NCBI GenBank assembly: GCA_949292905.1
Contig: CASFAV010000006.1
Span: 67,456 to 131,455, forward strand
Origin: an uncultured Eubacteriales bacterium
Lineage (GTDB): Bacteria > Bacillota > Clostridia > Christensenellales > DTU072
Direction of reading: 5' to 3'
Length of the DNA: 64,000 nucleotides
Position 1 is the first letter of the stretch. Every line of letters begins with the position of its first letter. This document shows positions 7,763 through 64,000 of the stretch, one piece after another. A model generated the notes under the pieces. That model did not search any database and was not told the origin of the DNA. It saw only the letters and a program-made list of their open reading frames with translations. Both the position numbers and the translations under genes were made by a program.

Positions 7763-8822
7763 CGTTTTGACCGTAGAAGTATACGGCGCTTCGCACGCCG
7801 TCGCCACAGGCGTGAAAATTACCGGTATTCCCGCAGGGACGGAAATAGATCGCGCGGCGATAGACGCGCTTCTCTTAAGAAGGCGCGCGGTCAACGCCCC
7901 GTGGTCCACTTCGCGTATCGAGAAGGACGAATACGTTTTTTCGGGAGGCGTGGAGAACGGTATCGCCAACGGCGGCACGATAACCGCTGAAATACCGAAT
8001 ACGAATACGAGAAGTTCCGATTACGGCGAATTCAGGAACGTTCCGCGTCCCTCTCACGCCGACTACGCGGCGATGGTAAAGGACGGCACCCGCGAGGTAG
8101 CGCCGGGAGGGGGCAGATTTTCGGGAAGGATGACCGCGCCTCTTTGCATAGCGGGCGGTATCGCGGAAGGTATGCTCGTGAAGAAAGGAGTGTACGTATG
8201 CGCTTACGTCTCTTCGATAGGCAACGTAGAAGGCAGAAGCTATAAAGAGGGCGTTCCCGCGCGGGAAGAGGTGTCCGACGCGCAACGCTTTCCGTTACCC
8301 GCGCTCGACAAGCGTGAGGAAATGCTTGAGGAGATAATCGCCGCCGCTTCGGCGGGCGACAGCGTGGGCGGTACTGTAGAATGCGCGGTCTACGGTCTTC
8401 CCGCGGGGATAGGCGACTATATGACCGACGGCATGGAGTCCGCGATAGCGGCGAGCGTGTACGGCGTGCCCGCGGTGAAGGGAGTGGAATTCGGGGACGG
8501 TTTTTCTCTTTCGCGCATGCGCGGAAGCGAAGCCAACGATCCTTTCGCCTACAAGGACGGCAAGGTCGTCACGCTCACCAACAGAAGCGGCGGTATCAAC
8601 GGCGGTATCACCAACGGAATGCCGCTCACGCTGCGCGTGGCGGTAAGACCGACGCCGTCGATAGCGAAGGAACAGCGTAGCGTAAACGTACTGACGAGAG
8701 AGAACGTCATATTGAGAATAAAAGGGCGCCACGACGCCTGTATAGTCCCGCGCGCGGTCGCGGCGGTGGAAAGCGCGGTAGCGCTGGCGGTGCTCGATAA
8801 AATGCTTGCCGAAGGTAAGTGA
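7752..8822 (+). CDS. aroC: chorismate synthase
   Basis: 356 aa with the motifs RPSHADY, GGGRFSGRMTA and GRHDACIVPRA. Confidence 0.93.
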   Translation: MKGDVLTVEVYGASHAVATGVKITGIPAGTEIDRAAIDALLLRRRAVNAPWSTSRIEKDEYVFSGGVENGIANGGTITAEIPNTNTRSSDYGEFRNVPRPSHADYAAMVKDGTREVAPGGGRFSGRMTAPLCIAGGIAEGMLVKKGVYVCAYVSSIGNVEGRSYKEGVPAREEVSDAQRFPLPALDKREEMLEEIIAAASAGDSVGGTVECAVYGLPAGIGDYMTDGMESAIAASVYGVPAVKGVEFGDGFSLSRMRGSEANDPFAYKDGKVVTLTNRSGGINGGITNGMPLTLRVAVRPTPSIAKEQRSVNVLTRENVILRIKGRHDACIVPRAVAAVESAVALAVLDKMLAEGK

Positions 8823-11388: not shown

Positions 11389-11796
11389 ATGAACGCAGAG
11401 GAAGTCAGAAAGCACATATACGACACATACGGAGTGGAAGGCGACCTGCCGTGGGCGGATGACGACAGCACCGTATTCCGTCATAAGAGTAACCGCAAGT
11501 GGTTTGCGCTAATCATGTTCGGGGTAGACAGGGCCCGTCTGAAGACGGCGGGCGAAGGGGCGGCGGACGCGCTCAATCTGAAATGCGAGCCGGAGCTCGC
11601 GTTGATGATACGCGACGGGAAGGGGATACTTCCCGCGTACCACATGAACAAGGAAAAATGGATAACAGTGGTGCTCGACGGTTCCGTGCCGGCGGAACAG
11701 ATAAAGGCGCTCATCGACGTGAGTTACGAGCTCACGGTAAACGCGAAGCCCGTGAAAAACCCAAAGCCGAGCGCATGTAAAAGCAGTAAAGTATAG
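11389..11796 (+). CDS. MmcQ/YjbR-family DNA-binding protein
   Basis: 135 aa. The segments ...FRHKSNRKWFALIM...LKCEPE...AYHMNKEKWITVVLDG are typical of YjbR/MmcQ. Confidence 0.8.
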   Translation: MNAEEVRKHIYDTYGVEGDLPWADDDSTVFRHKSNRKWFALIMFGVDRARLKTAGEGAADALNLKCEPELALMIRDGKGILPAYHMNKEKWITVVLDGSVPAEQIKALIDVSYELTVNAKPVKNPKPSACKSSKV

Positions 11797-11825
11797 GAAG
11801 AGTAAATGCTTTTTGCATTATAAAG

Positions 11826-11878
11826 GCGCAAACGGGAGCACTGCCCCCGCTTGCGGTCACAAAGTAAAAACAGCTCCG
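11826..11878 (-). repeat. second, decayed copy of the tRNA-Leu-proximal terminator/linker segment
   Basis: GCGCAAACGGGAGCACTGCCCCCGCTTGCGGTCACAAAGTAAAAACAGCTCCG aligns with 12083-12134 (GCGCAAACAGGTACACTGCCCCGATCTTCGGTGCCAATTAAAAACAGCTCCG). The period is about 257 nt. Confidence 0.7.
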
Positions 11879-11921
11879 AGAAGACGGGATAGAAATGCGT
11901 CGTGTATGTAAAATAAATCGG

Positions 11922-11947
11922 TTTGCCGAAGGCGGGGGCACTCGAAG
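11922..11947 (-). repeat. orphan, degenerate copy of the tRNA-Leu T-arm/acceptor 3' end
   Basis: The minus strand reads CTTCGAGTGCCCCCGCCTTCGGCAAA. The genuine tRNA 3' end reads GTTCAAGTCCCGCCTTCGGCACCA. Confidence 0.65.
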
Positions 11948-11959
11948 TTACGGAGAGGA

Positions 11960-12062
11960 GAGAAGGGGCGTGACAGGGCGCCTCGTAGCGCAGAGGTAAT
12001 ACGGAGCTTTACGTTGCCCTCGTCAGTTTTGCCGCAGGGCGGCAAAATAGTGCACCCTTTTT
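11960..12062 (-). repeat. tRNA-Leu-linked structured element (relative of the tRNA-Pro-linked cores)
   Basis: The minus strand reads AAAGGGTGCA, then hairpin TTTTGCCGC-CCT-GCGGCAAAA (12027-12047), then CTGACGAG (12019-12026), then ...GTAAAG. The TGACGAGGGC segment can pair with GCCCTGTCA further 3'. Confidence 0.55.
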
Positions 12063-12121
12063 GCTTGTACACTCAGTGTACGGCGCAAACAGGTACACTG
12101 CCCCGATCTTCGGTGCCAATT

Positions 12122-12153
12122 AAAAACAGCTCCGCGAACACGGAGCTGTTTTT
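12122..12153. terminator. bidirectional stem-loop terminator 3' of tRNA-Leu
   Basis: AAAAACAGCTCCG-CGAACA-CGGAGCTGTTTTT, with A/T runs on both sides. Confidence 0.8.
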
Positions 12154-12156
12154 AAT

Positions 12157-12243
12157 TGGTGCCGAAGGCGGGACTTGAACCCGCACGAGGTCATCCCTCA
12201 GCGGATTTTGAGTCCGCCGCGTCTGCCATTCCACCACTTCGGC
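12157..12243 (-). tRNA. tRNA-Leu (anticodon CAA), CCA encoded
   Basis: Hand-folded cloverleaf. Acceptor GCCGAAG/CTTCGGC, anticodon arm GCGGA-CTCAAAA-TCCGC, long variable arm, T-arm GCGGG-TTCAAGT-CCCGC, then ACCA. 87 nt in total. Confidence 0.93.
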
Positions 12244-12258
12244 ACGAATGCAATGATT

Positions 12259-12287
12259 ATATTAGCATATCGTTAAGTAAATTGCAA
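12259..12287 (-). promoter_or_regulatory. promoter of tRNA-Leu
   Basis: On the minus strand: TTGCAA (12287-12282), 17-nt spacer, TAATAT (12264-12259). It ends 15 nt before the tRNA 5' end. Confidence 0.6.
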
Positions 12288-12390: not shown

Positions 12391-13356
12391 ATGTTGTGTG
12401 CGGCGCTGGCGCCTTGGGCGATCTCGGTAATTTGCGTTGCTGCCGTCGTGGCGGTCGCGGGGCTCTACGCTCTCGGTTGCTACATCGGCTTCTACTTGAT
12501 AATAGTGAGACCGCCTCTCGTAAGCGCGGACAAGCCCAACCCATTGATGGGCGACGATTTCGTCGGCTTCGTCAAGAAAACGCGGGAAGACGCCGTTATA
12601 ATGCAAAAGCTCGAACGCGAACCAGTGGAAGTCGTTACGCGCGACGGACTTACCTTGCGCGGCGAATTCTATCGCGCGGCGGAGCCGAGCGATATAACGA
12701 TAGTGTGCTTACACGGCTATAACAGCAACGCTTACGGCGATTATTCGACGCGCGGATTGAGTTATCTCCATAGCGGATACAACGTACTGCTTGCCAATCA
12801 CAGGCACCACGGTAAGAGCGACGGAAAATATATCGGTTTCGGCGTGCTGGACCGTCACGACGTGCTTAAGTGGGTGGAAGCCGCGGCTAAACTCGTGCCC
12901 GGCGGTAAGATCTTCATATCCGGGGTATCCATGGGCGGAGCCACGGCAATGCAATGCTCCTGCCTCGCGCTGACGCCGGACGTCAAAGGCATAATCGAGG
13001 ATTGCGGATACACCACGGTCAGAGCCGAAGTAGAGTATCTTGCAAAAAAAATGTTCGGATTCGTTCCCAAGCTGACGATAAAATTTATCGAATTTTACAT
13101 GCGCAAAATAGCGGGCTACGGTATGAGCGAAGCGGACTCGCGCGAAGCGGTCAAGCATTCAAAGGTGCCGATACTGTTCATACACGGAACGGAAGACGAA
13201 TTTGTGCCGACGTTCATGGGCAACGAGTGTTACGAAGCCTGCACGGCGCCCAAAGAACTCGTACTTATCGAAGGCGCGGGACACGCTCAATCGTATTACA
13301 GAGACGCTGCGAAATGCGCCGAAGCCGTGAACGCATTCATATCTCGATACAAATAA
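12391..13356 (+). CDS. membrane-anchored alpha/beta hydrolase
   Basis: 321 aa with an N-terminal TM helix, the GVSMGG nucleophile elbow and a C-terminal ...GAGHAQ segment. GGAGGTGG Shine-Dalgarno site. Confidence 0.85.
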   Translation: MLCAALAPWAISVICVAAVVAVAGLYALGCYIGFYLIIVRPPLVSADKPNPLMGDDFVGFVKKTREDAVIMQKLEREPVEVVTRDGLTLRGEFYRAAEPSDITIVCLHGYNSNAYGDYSTRGLSYLHSGYNVLLANHRHHGKSDGKYIGFGVLDRHDVLKWVEAAAKLVPGGKIFISGVSMGGATAMQCSCLALTPDVKGIIEDCGYTTVRAEVEYLAKKMFGFVPKLTIKFIEFYMRKIAGYGMSEADSREAVKHSKVPILFIHGTEDEFVPTFMGNECYEACTAPKELVLIEGAGHAQSYYRDAAKCAEAVNAFISRYK

Positions 13357-13366
13357 CTTTTAACGA

Positions 13367-13396
13367 TTGACAATATCCTTCCCGATGTGGTAGATT
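13367..13396 (+). promoter_or_regulatory. promoter of tRNA-Pro
   Basis: TTGACA (13367-13372), 18-nt spacer, TAGATT (13391-13396). It ends 15 nt before the tRNA. Confidence 0.55.
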
Positions 13397-13411
13397 ATTC
13401 GGGAAGGAAAA

Positions 13412-13488
13412 CGAGGTGTAGCGCAGTTTGGTAGCGCGCTTGGTTCGGGACCAAGAGGTCGTGGGTTCGAATCCCGTCACCTCGACCA
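13412..13488 (+). tRNA. tRNA-Pro (anticodon CGG), CCA encoded
   Basis: Acceptor CGAGGTG/CACCTCG, D-arm GCGC-AGTTTGGTA-GCGC, anticodon arm CTTGG-TTCGGGA-CCAAG, T-loop TTCGAAT. The T-stem GTGGG/CCCGT has two G-U pairs. Confidence 0.9.
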
Positions 13489-13525
13489 CGCAAAAGGCAG
13501 CCGTCACGGTTGCCTTTTTGCGTGG
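13489..13525 (+). terminator. intrinsic terminator after tRNA-Pro
   Basis: GCAAAAGGCA-GCCGTCACGGT-TGCCTTTTTGC. Confidence 0.75.
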
Positions 13526-13564
13526 TCGGGGACGCGATAGCATACCCGTGCGCTTCAGCGCAAA

Positions 13565-13724
13565 GGGTGCGCAAGTTTGCGCAGGTAAGGCGCAAACCTG
13601 ACGAGCGTGAAAGTTGTACCTGTCCGTCAGGCGGGTGCAATCTTATACACCCTGCGTAAAAAATAACGGCTATAAATCAAATGCCGATATAACTAACGTA
13701 TCTGAGTTTCGGCGCATTTTGCGC
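13565..13724 (+). repeat. tRNA-Pro-linked 160-nt core, copy 1
   Basis: Aligns without gaps to 13832-13991; I count 8 mismatches. Paper fold: P1 AGGGTG 13564-69 / CACCCT 13648-53; P2 GTTTGCGC 13575-82 / GCGCAAAC 13590-97; P3 CCTGACG 13597-603 / CGTCAGG 13625-31. Confidence 0.9.
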
Positions 13725-13734
13725 CCGAGTGATG

Positions 13735-13750
13735 CCGTCACCTCGACCAC
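13735..13750 (+). repeat. orphan copy of the tRNA-Pro 3' end (CCGTCACCTCGACCAC)
   Basis: 16/16 identical to 13474-13489, which lies inside the intact tRNA-Pro gene. Confidence 0.85.
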
Positions 13751-13786
13751 AAAAAAAGGGCAGCATTTTCGCTGTCCTTTTTTTGT
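13751..13786 (+). terminator. second terminator-like stem-loop, following the orphan tRNA end
   Basis: AAAAAAAGGGCAGC-ATTTTC-GCTGTCCTTTTTTT. It has the same position and shape as 13489-13525 but a different sequence. Confidence 0.65.
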
Positions 13787-13831
13787 GCGTCGGACGAACG
13801 GGATAGCTTAACCCGTTTCGTATACGAAAGA

Positions 13832-13991
13832 GGGTGCGCAAGTTTGCGCAGGTAAGGCGCAAACCTGACGAGCGTGAAAGTTGTACCGGTCCGTCAGGCG
13901 GGCGCAACCTTATGCACCCTTCGTAAAAAATAACAGCTATAAATCAAATACCGATATAACTAACGTATCGGAGTTTCGGCGCATTTTGCGC
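13832..13991 (+). repeat. tRNA-Pro-linked 160-nt core, copy 2
   Basis: See copy 1. The offset is 267 nt and the first 56 nt are identical. Confidence 0.9.
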
Positions 13992-14024
13992 TCCTTCTTC
14001 ATTTTCGGAATTCGGCTATTACGC

Positions 14025-14053
14025 TTGGCAAACCCCTTCGTCCGCGACATAAT
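14025..14053 (+). promoter_or_regulatory. sigma-70-type promoter-like element
   Basis: TTGGCA, 17-nt spacer, CATAAT. Confidence 0.45.
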
Positions 14054-14077
14054 ATCGGTAAAAATAAGTAAAAACCG

Positions 14078-14587
14078 TTGCAAAAACGGGAAGAACCGCA
14101 TCCCTTCGGTTATATATTCGGTACCGATTCATATGCCGGCGGAACGGAAGTCGAGCAGTATTATTACGGTAGCAGTACTTCATACACGACGTCGACCACA
14201 TATTATATACCCGCGAGCCTACGAAGCGTCACTGTAACGGGCGGGAATATCCTGTACGGAGCGTTCCGTAATTGCTCGATGCTTACCTCGGTGACTATAG
14301 GGAACTCGGTCACAAGCATAGGAAGATATGCCTTCCGGAATTGCACGGGACTTACCTCGGTGGCGATAGGGCACTCGGTCACGAGCATAGGAAGTTATGC
14401 CTTTTGGGGGTGCACGGTTACTTCAGCCATATTCGAGGATACCGAGGGCTGGCAGGTGTCGTTGTTTAGCTCTTTCAGTAATTATACTTCGCTCGCGAGC
14501 ACCGATCTTGCGGACGCTTCCACTGCGGCTGAATATCTCATCAGGTCGACATACCACAGTTATTACTGGCGTAAGGTAGCGGCATAA
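14078..14587 (+). pseudogene. BspA-type leucine-rich-repeat protein, apparent C-terminal remnant
   Basis: Repeats of the form IPASLRSVTV..AFRNCSMLTSVTIGNSVTSIGRYAFRNCTGLTSVAIGHSVTSIGSYAFWGC. The ORF opens on TTG with no Shine-Dalgarno site, no signal peptide and no ATG for about 65 codons. Proteins of this family are normally large and secreted. Confidence 0.55.
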
Positions 14588-26720: not shown

Positions 26721-27725
26721 ATGTCGAAGAAAAACAATCAGAAGATAAAAATAATGGCGTTATACGATATCCTTCGCAGGGAGACCGACGAGGAACATCC
26801 GATGTCCACGGCAGAGCTTATCGCAAAGCTCGCCGATATGGGCATACCCGCCGAGCGTAAATCGCTTTACGAGGATATCCGCGTACTCAACGAATTCGGC
26901 TACGAAGTGCTTACCGTGCGCGAGAAAGCGAACATGTATTACGTCGTAGACCGCGCTTTCGACACGGCGGAACTGAAAATACTGCTCGACGCCGTTCAGG
27001 CGGCGCCGTTCGTCACCGAGAAAAAGACAGACGTTTTGGTCGATAAGATCGCTTCGCTCGCGGGAGCGCACCGCGCCGAGCTTCTCAAGGAAAACATCGT
27101 TTGTTTCGATACCGTGAAACATACCAACGAAAACGTATTCTATTCCGTCGACACGATAGACACCTGCATACTTACCGGAAGGAAGTGCTCTTTCGGCTAT
27201 TTCGATTTCGATTTCGAAGGGCAGAGGGTTTACCGCAAAGGCGGCGAAAGATACCTTGTCAACCCGATAGCGCTCGTATTCAGCAACGACAACTATTATC
27301 TTATGGCTTACGGCGACAAATACGAGAACGTAGCCGTTTACCGCGTGGACAGAATGGACAAGGTGGAGGCGGAAGGGGAATCGGTTACCCGCGCCGACTG
27401 GCTCGATCCGGACGACGTAGCTTCGTACAGGAAGCGCGCCTTCTCGATGTTTGCGGGGAAGACCGAGGAAGTTTCGCTCGTCGCGGACAAATCCGTGACC
27501 GACGTCATCGTCGATAAGTTCGGCGAGCGCGTCAACATGCTCAAGCTCGACGAGAATACCTGCCGCGTAAAAGTTAAAGTGCAGGTGAGTCCCACCTTTT
27601 TCGGCTGGCTCGCGACTTTCCCCGGCAAGATAACGGTGAGCGCGCCAGAAAGCGTGCGCGATGCCTATCTCGAACATCTCGAGAGGGCGGTTTCGGCTCA
27701 GCAAGAGGAGAAAAAAGATGATTAA
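26721..27725 (+). CDS. HTH + WYL-domain transcriptional regulator
   Basis: N-terminal winged HTH (ALYDILRRETDEEHPMSTAELIAKL). Central WYL-like segment (..VNPIALVFSNDNYYLMAYG..YRVDRM). Confidence 0.8.
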   Translation: MSKKNNQKIKIMALYDILRRETDEEHPMSTAELIAKLADMGIPAERKSLYEDIRVLNEFGYEVLTVREKANMYYVVDRAFDTAELKILLDAVQAAPFVTEKKTDVLVDKIASLAGAHRAELLKENIVCFDTVKHTNENVFYSVDTIDTCILTGRKCSFGYFDFDFEGQRVYRKGGERYLVNPIALVFSNDNYYLMAYGDKYENVAVYRVDRMDKVEAEGESVTRADWLDPDDVASYRKRAFSMFAGKTEEVSLVADKSVTDVIVDKFGERVNMLKLDENTCRVKVKVQVSPTFFGWLATFPGKITVSAPESVRDAYLEHLERAVSAQQEEKKDD

Positions 27726-32391: not shown

Positions 32392-32668
32392 AACAACCAT
32401 AAACCGTTGACGCAGAGTAGTAACTCGAGGGAAGCGCAGAGAGATATCCGGTACGGTGTGACGGAGAAGCGGAATCCGAGCGAATGGACTGCCGAGGGTC
32501 GGTGCGAACGCATCAGTCAGTAGTGCCGGACGGGAACTCCCGTAACAGAGTCAGGATATGACGGTATCCGTGAATTAAGGTCGGACTCGAGGTCCGGCGA
32601 AGTCGGGTGGCAACACGAAACGATATGATTCGTCCCGACGCAGTAACAGTCTGCGTCGGGATTTTATT
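32392..32668 (+). promoter_or_regulatory. T-box riboswitch, Trp specifier (UGG)
   Basis: Stem I elements AGTAGTA, AGAGA and GGTGTGA. Specifier GAA-TGG-A (TGG at 32485-32487). T-box sequence AAGTCGGGTGGCAACACG (32600-32617). Terminator TCCCGACGCAG / CTGCGTCGGGA plus a T-run (32633-32668). Confidence 0.85.
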
Positions 32669-32707: not shown

Positions 32708-34087
32708 ATGACCAAAACGACGGACATTCCCTACAAGATCTATTTAACCGAAGACGAAATGCCGCGTAGCTGGTACAACGTCCGTGCCGATATGCCGGAA
32801 AAGCACGATCCGATGCTCAATCCCGCGACGCTCGAACCCGCGACGAGAGAGGAACTCGAGAAGGTATTTTGTTCCGCGGTGGTGGAGCAGGAGCTCAACC
32901 AGACGGACAGATACATAGAGATCCCCGATGGCATAAGGAATTTCTACAAGATGTACAGACCTTCGCCCCTGGTAAGAGCGTATTGCCTTGAGAAAGCGCT
33001 CGGCACCCCCGCGGAGATATACTACAAATTCGAGGGCAACAACACTTCGGGGTCGCATAAGCTCAATTCGGCGGCGGCGCAGGCATATTACGCCAAGCAG
33101 GAGGGACTCACCTCGCTCACTACCGAAACGGGAGCGGGACAATGGGGTACCGCGTTGTCGATGGCGTGCGCCTTCTTCGGACTCGACCTGACCGTATTCA
33201 TGGTAAAGGTCAGCAGCGAGCAGAAGCCGCACCGCAGAGAGGTCATGCGCACCTACGGCGCCAAGGTCATACCTTCGCCTTCGGACACCACGGAATGCGG
33301 CAGGGCGATACTCAAAGCACATCCCGGAACGGGCGGCTCGCTCGGATGCGCCATTTCCGAAGCCGTAGAAGTGGCGGTATCCACTCCCGGCTGTCGTTAC
33401 GGTCTGGGCTCCGTACTCGATCACGTTCTCCTGCATCAGTCTATAATAGGCTGCGAGAGCAAGATAGCCCTCGACAAGTACGGCGTACACCCCGATATGA
33501 TCATCGGTTGCGCGGGCGGCGGCTCCAACCTCGGCGGACTTATCAGTCCGTTTATGGGGGAGAAACTGCGCGGCGAACGCGATTACCGTTTCATCGCCGT
33601 CGAGCCCGTTTCCTGCCCTTCGCTCACGAGAGGCAAATACCTTTACGACTTCGGCGATACAGGCAAGATAACTCCTCTCATGAAAATGTATACCCTGGGT
33701 TGCGACTTCATACCCTCCGCCAATCACGCGGGCGGGCTACGTTACCACGGAATGAGCGCGGTGATAAGCAAACTTTATCACGACGGATTTATAGAAGCGA
33801 GAAGCGTGGAACAGACCTCCGTTTTCAAAGCCGCGGAAGCTTTCGCGCGTACCGAAGGCATACTGCCCGCCCCCGAATCCTCTCACGCCATACGCGTGGC
33901 GATAGACGAGGCGTTGAAGTGTAAGGAGACCGGCGAAAAGAAGGTGATACTTTTCGGACTTACCGGAACGGGGTATTTCGATATGACGGCGTATAAGAAA
34001 TTCAACGACGGCGAGATGAGCGACTATGTCCCCACCGACGAGGAGATAGAGAAGAGCGTCGCGCAACTCGAGCCTTACAACAAATAA
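32708..34087 (+). CDS. trpB: TrpB-like PLP enzyme, TrpB2 (long) subfamily tryptophan synthase beta chain
   Basis: 459 aa. The N-terminal extension (...EMPRSWYNVRADMPEKHDP) is typical of TrpB2. Motifs HKLNSA (PLP lysine) and GCAGGGSN. Confidence 0.88.
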   Translation: MTKTTDIPYKIYLTEDEMPRSWYNVRADMPEKHDPMLNPATLEPATREELEKVFCSAVVEQELNQTDRYIEIPDGIRNFYKMYRPSPLVRAYCLEKALGTPAEIYYKFEGNNTSGSHKLNSAAAQAYYAKQEGLTSLTTETGAGQWGTALSMACAFFGLDLTVFMVKVSSEQKPHRREVMRTYGAKVIPSPSDTTECGRAILKAHPGTGGSLGCAISEAVEVAVSTPGCRYGLGSVLDHVLLHQSIIGCESKIALDKYGVHPDMIIGCAGGGSNLGGLISPFMGEKLRGERDYRFIAVEPVSCPSLTRGKYLYDFGDTGKITPLMKMYTLGCDFIPSANHAGGLRYHGMSAVISKLYHDGFIEARSVEQTSVFKAAEAFARTEGILPAPESSHAIRVAIDEALKCKETGEKKVILFGLTGTGYFDMTAYKKFNDGEMSDYVPTDEEIEKSVAQLEPYNK

Positions 34088-62101: not shown

Positions 62102-62177
62102 GGGGGTATAGCTCAGTTGGTAGAGCACCTGCTTTGCAAGCAGGGGGTCTGCGGTTCGAATCCGCATATCTCCACCA
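62102..62177 (+). tRNA. tRNA-Ala (anticodon TGC), CCA encoded
   Basis: GGGGGTATAGCTCAGTTGGTAGAGC..CTTTGCAAG.. with the G3:U70 identity pair. Confidence 0.93.
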
Positions 62178-62186
62178 ATCGGATAT

Positions 62187-62263
62187 AGGCTGGTAGCTCA
62201 GCAGGTTAGAGCACGCGCCTGATAAGCGCGAGGTCGGTGGTTCGAGTCCACTTCAGCCTACCA
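62187..62263 (+). tRNA. tRNA-Ile (anticodon GAT), CCA encoded
   Basis: AGGCTGGTAGCTCAGCAGGTTAGAGC..CCTGATAAG..GGTTCGAGTCC. Confidence 0.92.
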
Positions 62264-62456
62264 GAACCGCGTAAGCGGCGAACTCCTGCACCTTGACAAC
62301 TGCATAAAGAGTAGACATAAAATGATCTTAAAATATCTAGAAATAACGTTTCAGAGTAATACGAATTGAACGTAGAAACTAGCTGGAATAAATTGCGAAG
62401 ATATTTTGCTGAGGATTAAACCGAGATAATGTTTCTTTAATAGAGAATCAAGACGA

Positions 62457-64000
<1,544 letters not shown>

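Follow-up and report, generated by a model that had tools for sequence, protein, structure and literature searches.

A 64,000-nucleotide (nt) stretch of contig CASFAV010000006.1 (positions 67,456 to 131,455, forward strand; assembly GCA_949292905.1), from an uncultured Eubacteriales bacterium, carries an array of short repeats directly behind a tRNA-Pro(CGG) gene and a second array of the same kind behind a tRNA-Leu(CAA) gene. We refer to this whole stretch as the window and number positions from its first letter. The repeats are members of a family, not described before, of small hairpin units that do not code for protein and lie directly behind tRNA-Pro, tRNA-Leu, and tRNA-Ser genes in uncultured gut Clostridia. 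With slightly less than even confidence, we read the Pro array as one copy-number-variable array of a tRNA-trailer repeat family resembling the Escherichia coli tyrT/rtT repeats, in which recombination between repeats alters the arrays and the hairpins function in cis or give rise to a processed RNA. A preliminary description of the Pro locus, made from its letters alone, had offered three other explanations: collapsed attachment arms of two successive integrations, a miniature integrative element mobilized in trans, and a structured RNA or protein-binding platform. The last two survive our analysis; the trailer-repeat reading, which was not listed, fits best.

We dissected the Pro array on the plus strand, where the intact tRNA-Pro gene with its encoded CCA (13412-13488; ARAGORN and Rfam agree) is followed by two head-to-tail units of 261/267 nt, each opening with the tRNA 3' end. 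The tandem duplication already seen in the preliminary description is thus real. First, the repeat search returned a direct repeat of 161 nt (13564-13724 and 13831-13991) with 95% identity and a spacing of 267. Second, a 25-nt repeat with a spacing of 261 spans the tRNA end, reading ATCCCGTCACCTCGACCACGCAAAA in its first copy (13471-13495) and ATGCCGTCACCTCGACCACAAAAAA in its second (13732-13756). The 15-mer CCGTCACCTCGACCA has just two occurrences in the window, starting at 13474 and 13735, with a chance expectation of 0.12 at two mismatches or fewer. Each unit consists, in order, of a long terminator hairpin (P0), a linker hairpin (P1), the motif GGGTGCRC, a second hairpin (P2), the motif CUGACGAGG, and a fast-evolving spacer of 60-110 nt.

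In unit 1, P0 occupies 13480-13531, as judged from an inverted repeat and folding. Its outer 5' arm is the acceptor 3' strand of the tRNA plus CCA (CCTCGACCAC), and the partner, GTGGTCGGGG, lies beyond the T-run. The linker (13532-13564; sequence reading and a pairing test) contains GCATACCC (13540-13547), which is able to pair with GGGTGCGC to form P1, as well as an inner hairpin, GCGC-TTCA-GCGC (13550-13561). The conserved module follows at 13562-13609 (62.9 bits with the covariance model described below) and comprises GGGTGCGC at 13565-13572, the P2 arms at 13575-13582 and 13590-13597, and CTGACGAG at 13598-13605. The remainder of the core (13610-13724) is specific to this locus and absent from other family members. 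It leads into a junction, CCGAGTGATG (13725-13734), and then an orphan tRNA-Pro 3' end (13735-13750; direct repeat and folding) that comprises the T-stem 3' strand, the acceptor 3' strand, A, and CCA. Unit 2 repeats this order with its own P0 (13743-13793; inverted repeat, scan, and folding), a bidirectional terminator-like hairpin that a consensus scan scored as a minus-strand terminator-like site and whose sequence is unlike the unit-1 P0 and nearer to the type found in a related locus, L005. A second module copy with the same GGGTGCGC, P2, and CTGACGAG lies at 13829-13876 (62.0 bits). The remainder of core 2 (13877-13991) has no junction or orphan at its end and continues into a flank shared with another relative, L003. 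The end of the array is marked by a promoter-like site (14025-14053, plus strand) of the downstream BspA-type leucine-rich repeat (LRR) gene at 14078-14587.

Both P0 elements (13480-13531 and 13743-13793) have the GC-rich hairpin and T-run of an intrinsic terminator, with inverted repeats at 13480-13495/13516-13531 and 13748-13764/13771-13787. An unusual trait of these terminators is that the stem reaches into the tRNA acceptor strand. They keep their shape and diverge in sequence, as had been described: the terminator and linker parts of the two units are 66% identical with 9 gap columns, and the cores are 95% identical. Our recount of the 160-nt cores likewise agreed with 8 mismatches and no indels. 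The mismatches fall at 13621, 13636, 13641, 13647, 13654, 13668, 13683, and 13703; hence, the first 56 nt are identical. Coding does not account for this conservation. There are stop codons in all six core frames and, depending on the frame, between 3 and 7 of the 8 substitutions would be non-synonymous; with no synonymous excess, we rejected a protein-coding gene or pseudogene.

To define which part of the unit is conserved, we built a covariance model on GGGTGCRC, hairpin P2, and CUGACGAGG. Over about 230 kb of window sequence and related contigs, it produced 17 matches of 52-66 bits, all of them within 199 kb; the other 29 kb yielded none, and the runners-up scored below 20 bits. All 17 strong copies lie just 3' of a tRNA gene and in its orientation, namely Pro-CGG, Leu-CAA, or Ser-UGA. 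The window holds exactly three of them (13562-13609, 13829-13876, and 12015-12060, the latter on the minus strand), and the other 14 are in relatives. A scan of this kind had been proposed at the outset, and its outcome was that copies occur elsewhere, always 3' of a tRNA and beside tRNA-end duplications. The conserved segment reads GGGTGCRC-NW-P2-CUGRCGA. Across loci, conservation is limited to this first ~45 nt of the core together with the tRNA end/P0, the P1 segment, and a YCGAGTK junction. The 160-nt core is therefore not the conserved entity that the preliminary description took it to be.

Within this segment, P2 is supported by covariation. Over 11 distinct sequences, every one of its 74 cells was paired, against 12-50% in slid controls, and two of its pairs show compensatory changes (G-C/U-A and C-G/G-C/A-U). 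The loop varies from 3 to 7 nt and the stem from 7 to 9 bp among copies, and some copies have GNRA loops (GCAA and GUAA). Of the three stems drawn initially, P2 is thus borne out, and AGGGTG/CACCCT (the P1 of that proposal) and P3 are confined to this locus; in other members, the partner of GGGTG lies in the upstream linker. We found the four GCGCA(A/G) hexamers where they were reported to be. They do not form a conserved phased array: the first is missing in unit 2, the set is missing elsewhere, and the hexamers are hairpin arms. Two further helices were rejected. A minimum free energy (MFE) hairpin at 13611-13644 is unconserved and is broken by 2 of the 8 unit-2 substitutions. A closing helix of the Leu units, GGGTGCAC with AGTGCCCC, predicted by RNAalifold, is invariant and so shows no covariation, and it has no counterpart in the Ser units or in L005 Pro.

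In MFE folds of Pro, Leu, and Ser units alike, the second recurrent structure, P0, is a hairpin of 22-33 bp with the acceptor 3' strand as part of its stem. We compared the duplex energy (kcal/mol) of each trailer with its cognate tRNA end and with other tRNA ends. The cognate end gave -17.0 versus -10.3 for window Pro, -28.2 versus -9.9/-13.7 for the Leu unit of L010, and -17.0 versus -6.6/-8.0 for the Ser unit of L020. The cognate end was favored in most units, the exceptions being L005 Pro, the second window Pro unit, and L003 Leu. According to the folds, an orphan tRNA 3' end is no bare scar: it supplies the 5' arm of P0 in the unit that follows, and as such it would be copied along with every unit copy. 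P1, formed between linker and GGGTGCRC, lies at homologous positions, yet many units are individually no better than shuffles.

The Leu array, which the preliminary description had missed, lies at 11825-12243 on the minus strand and consists of one full and one truncated unit. It is headed by tRNA-Leu(CAA) (12157-12243; tRNA call), whose end pairs beyond the terminator to form P0 (12108-12167; CTTCGG..CCAATT with AATTGG..CCGAAG). The module (12015-12060; 64.4 bits) reads GGGTGCAC-TA-TTTTGCCGC-CCT-GCGGCAAAA-CTGACGAGG, with TTTTGCCGC-CCT-GCGGCAAAA as P2, the outer pair of which is U-A instead of G-C. About 75 nt of unrelated sequence separate this module from a junction, TTCGAGTGCC, and an orphan tRNA-Leu 3' end without CCA, CCCGCCTTCGGCA (junction and orphan at 11924-11946; orphan itself at 11924-11936). 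A second, degenerate terminator and linker (11825-11923) stops after GTTTGCGCC.

We reached related loci through the hydrolase gene upstream of tRNA-Pro; all of the contigs are from uncultured Clostridia, and relatedness is given as protein identity to the window lineage. L003 (94%; gene order as in the window) has a single Pro unit that approximates window unit 1 (terminator and linker 97% identical, core 99%) and runs directly into the flank that follows window unit 2. Its Leu array has two full units versus one in the window. In L009 (98%), the tRNA, terminator, and linker are present and the unit ends after GGGTGCGCAAGTTTGCATC. The Pro array of L005 (87%) comprises two units, 211-217 nt long, and both carry an orphan tRNA-Pro end. 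The terminator and linker parts of these two units are 95% identical and the cores 73%, the reverse of the window, so that a constrained core beside a free linker, as first suggested, is no general rule. In a third lineage, L010, the module lies behind tRNA-Leu(CAA) with a perfect 33-bp hairpin taking in the acceptor strand.

A degenerate pattern made from the shared segments led to one metagenome contig, L019 (ENA-derived, ERZ779888), and a neighboring gene on it led to longer contigs of another genus from human-gut and other metagenome samples. In that genus, the module follows a tRNA-Ser(UGA) gene, and it is the 3' end of tRNA-Ser that recurs as the orphan (L020 and L026). The orphan is thus the adjacent tRNA's own 3' end at Pro (window and L005), Leu (window and L003), and Ser (L020 and L026), and the junction YCGAGTK immediately precedes it in Pro, Ser, and Leu arrays alike. 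In a more distant relative, L013, the module is absent at both tRNA-Pro and tRNA-Leu, and the tRNA ends pair with their own trailers weakly (-11.2 kcal/mol for Pro and -6.7 for Leu, compared with -17 to -28 for the clearest module-bearing units). As a separate observation, the tRNA-Pro(CGG) of L013 is followed, within 8097-8790, by two 129-nt direct repeats (8105-8233 and 8653-8781) around a ~460-nt imperfect palindrome; its sole overlap with the window is a 24-nt hairpin motif at 13886-13908.

To describe how the arrays vary, we divided each unit into H (tRNA end, P0, linker, GGGTGCRC, and the P2 5' arm) and X (the remainder up to the junction). Arrays then read (H-X)n, frequently closed by a truncated H. 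Pro copy number is 2 in the window, 1 in L003, and 0 plus a stub in L009; Leu copy number is 1 in the window and 2 in L003. H and X recombine independently. The two H parts of the window are 66% identical and its two X parts 95%; in L005, these values are 95% and 73%, respectively. Moreover, the L005 H is a closer match to window H2 (81%) than window H1 is. All eight unit-1 variants are present in the single X of L003, which places the breakpoint between the window and L003 within the final 21 nt of X or farther downstream and away from the tRNA end. Terminal copies end at hairpin apexes (after GTTTGCATC in L009 and after GTTTGCCG in L019, L020, and L026), and the last unit lacks the tRNA segment in several arrays, including window unit 2 and L003. 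Short-read contigs of relatives stop inside or beside arrays; hence, collapsed assembly could account for some of the copy-number differences. This cannot apply to the window array itself, since its two H parts clearly differ.

We suggest that the arrays might have originated by tandem duplication of a segment comprising the 3' part of the tRNA and its trailer, and that they expand, contract, and swap modules by recombination between tRNA ends and between GGGTGCRC-P2-CUGACGAGG segments. Unequal crossing-over, slippage at long palindromes, and Campbell-type insertion are candidate routes. The conserved hairpins would act in cis in the tRNA precursor or in a read-through transcript, in termination or 3'-end processing; alternatively, by analogy with rtT, they may give rise to a processed small RNA. 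The array itself would be a by-product. Several observations weigh against this trailer-repeat interpretation. First, homologous modules occur at three tRNAs in at least two genera, for which local duplication alone is insufficient; therefore, either an ancient common trailer origin or movement between loci is needed. Second, the Pro, Ser, and Leu arrays share the junction YCGAGTK ahead of the orphan, and this motif looks like the conserved end of an element. Third, two Ser loci contain gene cassettes between tRNA-end/terminator repeats, which represent insertion rather than duplication. In L026 (3685-4880), the cassette is a 1.1-kb alpha/beta-hydrolase insert with a left breakpoint 5 nt beyond the P0 loop. 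In L027, repeats at 263-470 and 2568-2760 bracket a 2.1-kb set of MerR, aldo-keto reductase, and NmrA-like genes. Neither cassette has an integrase. Fourth, outside P2, covariation gives no support to the unit structure; a search for covariation in the spacer across six Leu units found none.

The junction motif and the Ser cassettes point toward a miniature, non-autonomous integrative element, similar to a cis-mobilizable element (CIME) and moved by a tyrosine integrase encoded elsewhere, an explanation that we consider possible but doubtful. As we picture it, with the same reserve, a circle consisting of the tRNA 3' end, P0, P1, P2, the spacer, and YCGAGTK would enter or leave the 3' part of the tRNA gene. 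GGGTGCRC-P2-CUGACGAGG and YCGAGTK might, less probably than not, be the element ends, serving as recombinase or accessory-protein sites while the spacer drifts. Such an element could conceivably, though we would not expect it, be a minimal mobile or semi-mobile cassette of ~200-270 nt that carries no genes, regenerates the tRNA, and has spread to at least three tRNA species, moved in trans by a recombinase or through hairpin or single-stranded DNA intermediates and perhaps yielding a small RNA with a tRNA-identical 3' end. The conserved parts of such a cassette are two hairpins and the junction motif only. A tRNA gene left intact, with a cognate 3' fragment from the T-loop onward displaced, is the classical signature of integration into a tRNA gene (Islander, PMC4383910), the ends are conserved while the interior is variable, and arrays have a truncated terminal copy, (H-X)n-H. 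The likeness of window H2 to the H of another lineage would also suit import. Tandem accretion of decayed elements that retain their attachment sites has been documented (PMC5704250; for tycheposons, 10.1101/2020.12.28.424599).

Other evidence disfavors integration. We scanned 49 selected window open reading frames (ORFs) of at least 220 aa with Pfam and consulted precomputed Pfam annotation at other loci. No integrase, recombinase, transposase, or phage gene was found among these 49 ORFs or at the fetched loci (about 10), and searches of phage, plasmid, and IMG/VR sequences with the Pro, Leu, and Ser units gave no match; the genome may still encode an integrase elsewhere. The window neighborhood consists of shikimate pathway, GatAB, AspRS, and glycolysis genes and an rRNA operon. 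The foreign-looking window unit is distal, whereas a fresh integration is expected beside the tRNA. Between the window and L003, which differ by one unit in assemblies that are short-read and break in the arrays, the indel phase does not coincide with the tRNA end: the single L003 unit equals window unit 1, which sets the breakpoint within the final 21 nt of the core or farther on. Spacers are locus specific, which argues against recent movement between tRNAs. Finally, the complementarity of the trailer to the tRNA end plays no part in integrase chemistry, and the variable P2 loop length is unsuited to a double-strand recombinase core site.

The lack of integrases at the scanned loci also bears on a different possibility, that the repeats are functionless debris, i.e., collapsed attL/attR arms of islands or prophages at these tRNAs that have been almost fully deleted. 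We regard this as improbable. Direct repeats of tRNA ends do exist, and the regions behind the tRNAs differ by strain (TIR and GNAT genes in L005, a giant LRR gene in L009, and the cassettes in L026 and L027). Remnants of degenerate elements and scattered partial tRNAs have been reported in such islands (10.1101/2020.12.28.424599). However, independent deletions would not yield one ~45-nt module plus junction at three tRNAs in two genera, and GGGTGCRC-P2-CUGACGAGG is nearly invariant with a covarying P2, yet the adjacent spacer can no longer be aligned. We found no island bounded by these sequences. We sought island borders by tracing the TIR and GNAT genes, and the contigs all begin inside the array and continue into ordinary genes. 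Those genes, a TIR-domain gene and a GNAT acetyltransferase gene behind the Pro array of L005 (2141-3803) and also in L030 and L032, are a possible defense pair. With no prophage, integrative and conjugative element, or integrase at related loci or among the scanned window ORFs, two collapsed ordinary islands became the weakest of the three options in the preliminary description. The outcomes that it had named as refuting an unusual element and that we could check did not materialize: no island at the related loci has these ends, the element occurs elsewhere, and P2 covaries.

A sigma-70-like promoter (TTGACA-18-TAGATT; 13367-13396, plus strand) precedes tRNA-Pro, and a consensus scan found no promoter-like site inside the units and no conserved promoter ahead of the module. 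A strong terminator precedes the module as well; transcription of the module therefore remains a prediction, and this too counts against the trailer-repeat interpretation. The missing promoter also weakens a third alternative, which we think very improbable: a guide-like or tRNA-mimicking small RNA built from a scaffold (P1-P2 and onward), a 16-18 nt tRNA-identical 3' segment, and a terminator. Such an RNA could, at a stretch, be used by a trans-acting protein for homing to tRNA genes, or act as a decoy or regulator of tRNA 3'-end enzymes. In its favor, the order of 5' structure, junction, 16-18 nt tRNA-identical segment, and terminator is constant at all loci, and the E. coli rtT RNA has its 3' end exactly at an orphan CCA. 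On the other hand, no effector gene is nearby, the scaffold interior is unconserved, the tRNA segment is missing from the last unit of several arrays (window unit 2 and L003), no promoter was found, and the tRNA-identical segment in Leu lacks CCA.

We also matched the units against known elements. Rfam 15, applied at the gathering score to the whole window and with permissive E-values to the Pro, Leu, and Ser arrays, identified nothing but tRNAs in the arrays. RtT RNA (RF00391) gave no match at the gathering threshold, at E<=10 over 13300-14200, or at E<=1 over 11780-12260 and L020 4500-5000, although an identical search recovers four RtT units in E. coli. A hammerhead ribozyme was rejected: CUGACGAG is present, but stem II fails and in the window only 4 nt separate it from GAAA; GAAA is missing in other members, there is no NUH before P2, and no Rfam ribozyme matched. 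A class C group II intron was rejected because GGGUGCGC lies 30-50 nt past the terminator and not directly after it, the unit is 100-160 nt, domain V is lacking, and neither Intron_gpII nor D1-D4 matched in Rfam. P2 is not an integron attC site or recombinase core either, as there are no GTTRRRY/RYYYAAC boxes and both loop and stem length vary. The tRNA model was silent on a pseudo-tRNA body in the spacer. Lastly, a likeness of CGAGG/CGAGGTG to the tRNA-Pro 5' end, with possible pairing to the orphan, holds in Pro and Leu units and not in Ser units, and we set it aside.

Two other searches of larger collections added no further members. A Joint Genome Institute (JGI) metagenome scan with the window's exact P2 returned nothing. 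A GTDB genome scan with a 20-mer gave a single match, in a Dyadobacter coding sequence with unrelated flanks. There (L002 7890-7916; Dyadobacter crusticola, Bacteroidota), 27 nt of the core match exactly (AAGGCGCAAACCTGACGAGCGTGAAAG); this is probably chance, though far fewer than one such match is expected.

Some other features of the window are unrelated to the arrays. A 69-nt tandem repeat (14261-14398, plus strand; 84% identical) encodes LRR repeats within the BspA-type gene. A T-box leader (RF00230; 94.4 bits, just above the gathering score) lies at 32398-32640 on the plus strand, upstream of a gene for a pyridoxal phosphate-dependent enzyme (32708-34087). A gene for a WYL/WCX-domain protein is found at 26721-27725 (plus strand), with neighbors that have no Pfam match; WYL/WCX regulators often adjoin defense or mobile genes. 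The window ends in a partial rRNA operon (62102-64000, plus strand) with tRNA-Ala(UGC), tRNA-Ile(GAU), and the first 1548 nt of 23S rRNA. No module was found at these two tRNAs.

tRNA genes are the commonest landing sites of mobile DNA, and their trailers are usually regarded as featureless. Here, conserved hairpins, one of which would sequester the tRNA's own acceptor strand, are repeated behind several tRNAs of abundant, uncultured gut Clostridia with strain-variable copy number. If our interpretation holds at the RNA level, a second rtT-type system would join the only one known so far, it would be the first whose structure is clearly tied to tRNA 3'-end formation, and the long-unexplained tyrT repeats of E. 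coli would become comparable across phyla. If the units are mobile instead, they would constitute the smallest integrative element described and would explain why short-read assemblies break beside tRNA genes in these organisms. Under either reading, the module is a usable marker of variation between strains and of recombination hot spots where gene cassettes are also taken up.

Several known systems share part of this anatomy. Functional tRNA 3' trailers, such as the small RNA 3'ETS-leuZ derived from an external transcribed spacer (ETS), are conserved functional RNAs in the transcribed spacer behind a tRNA. Our units differ from these in that a terminator stands between tRNA and module and the segment is repeated. 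REP/BIME, BOX, Correia, and elements like miniature inverted-repeat transposable elements (MITEs) are short, modular, hairpin-forming, non-coding, and variable in copy number. Unlike those, the copies here are not dispersed, each being tRNA-linked, co-oriented, and tandem, and unlike MITEs they have no terminal inverted repeats or target-site duplications.

Islands and CIMEs integrated in tRNA genes are closer. As in those, a regenerated tRNA and a displaced 3' fragment form direct repeats that bound the insert, and arrays occur in tandem at one tRNA. Integrase-less derivatives that keep their attachment sites are known among such elements (PMC4383910; PMC5704250; tycheposons, 10.1101/2020.12.28.424599). 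In contrast, the units described here are gene-less and 204-267 nt long, with no integrase found in cis or at related loci; their conserved part is a pair of RNA-like hairpins, and the repeat spans ~100 nt past the tRNA.

The closest likeness is to E. coli tyrT/tyrV. We checked this locus in K-12 and found four RtT units (RF00391, 133-138 bits) with a period of 178. The unit between tyrT and tyrV leads into the intact tyrV, and each of the three units after tyrV ends in the tRNA-Tyr 3' end, AATCCTTCCCCCACCACCA, which begins in the T-loop behind CTGAGTAAT. The annotated rttR RNA has its 3' end exactly at the CCA of the first orphan, and 10.1101/2024.07.17.603846 cites a role for rtT in the stringent response and in processing of the tyrT transcript. 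The two systems are not the same. Our family has no sequence or structure match to RF00391, and its hosts are Firmicutes and not Enterobacteria. Units here open with a strong terminator hairpin that pairs the tRNA end, which E. coli units lack; three tRNAs are involved; and there is neither a Tpr-like ORF nor a second full tRNA copy in the array. Nevertheless, both consist of tandem, non-coding, co-oriented units directly 3' of a tRNA, and the post-tyrV units of E. coli end with the last ~19 nt of that tRNA. Head-to-tail units 3' of a tRNA, each with that tRNA's end, are likewise found in the window (Pro and Leu), L003, L005, L020, and L026. The E. coli junction CTGAGTAAT|CC (L037, K-12 1286300-1287800) resembles YCGAGTKAT|NCC of this family, and in both, T-loop positions 54-58 are replaced and positions 59-76 retained. 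Given this equal anatomy, we suggest by analogy that the tyrT/tyrV-rtT array and the arrays described here might share the same kind of origin.

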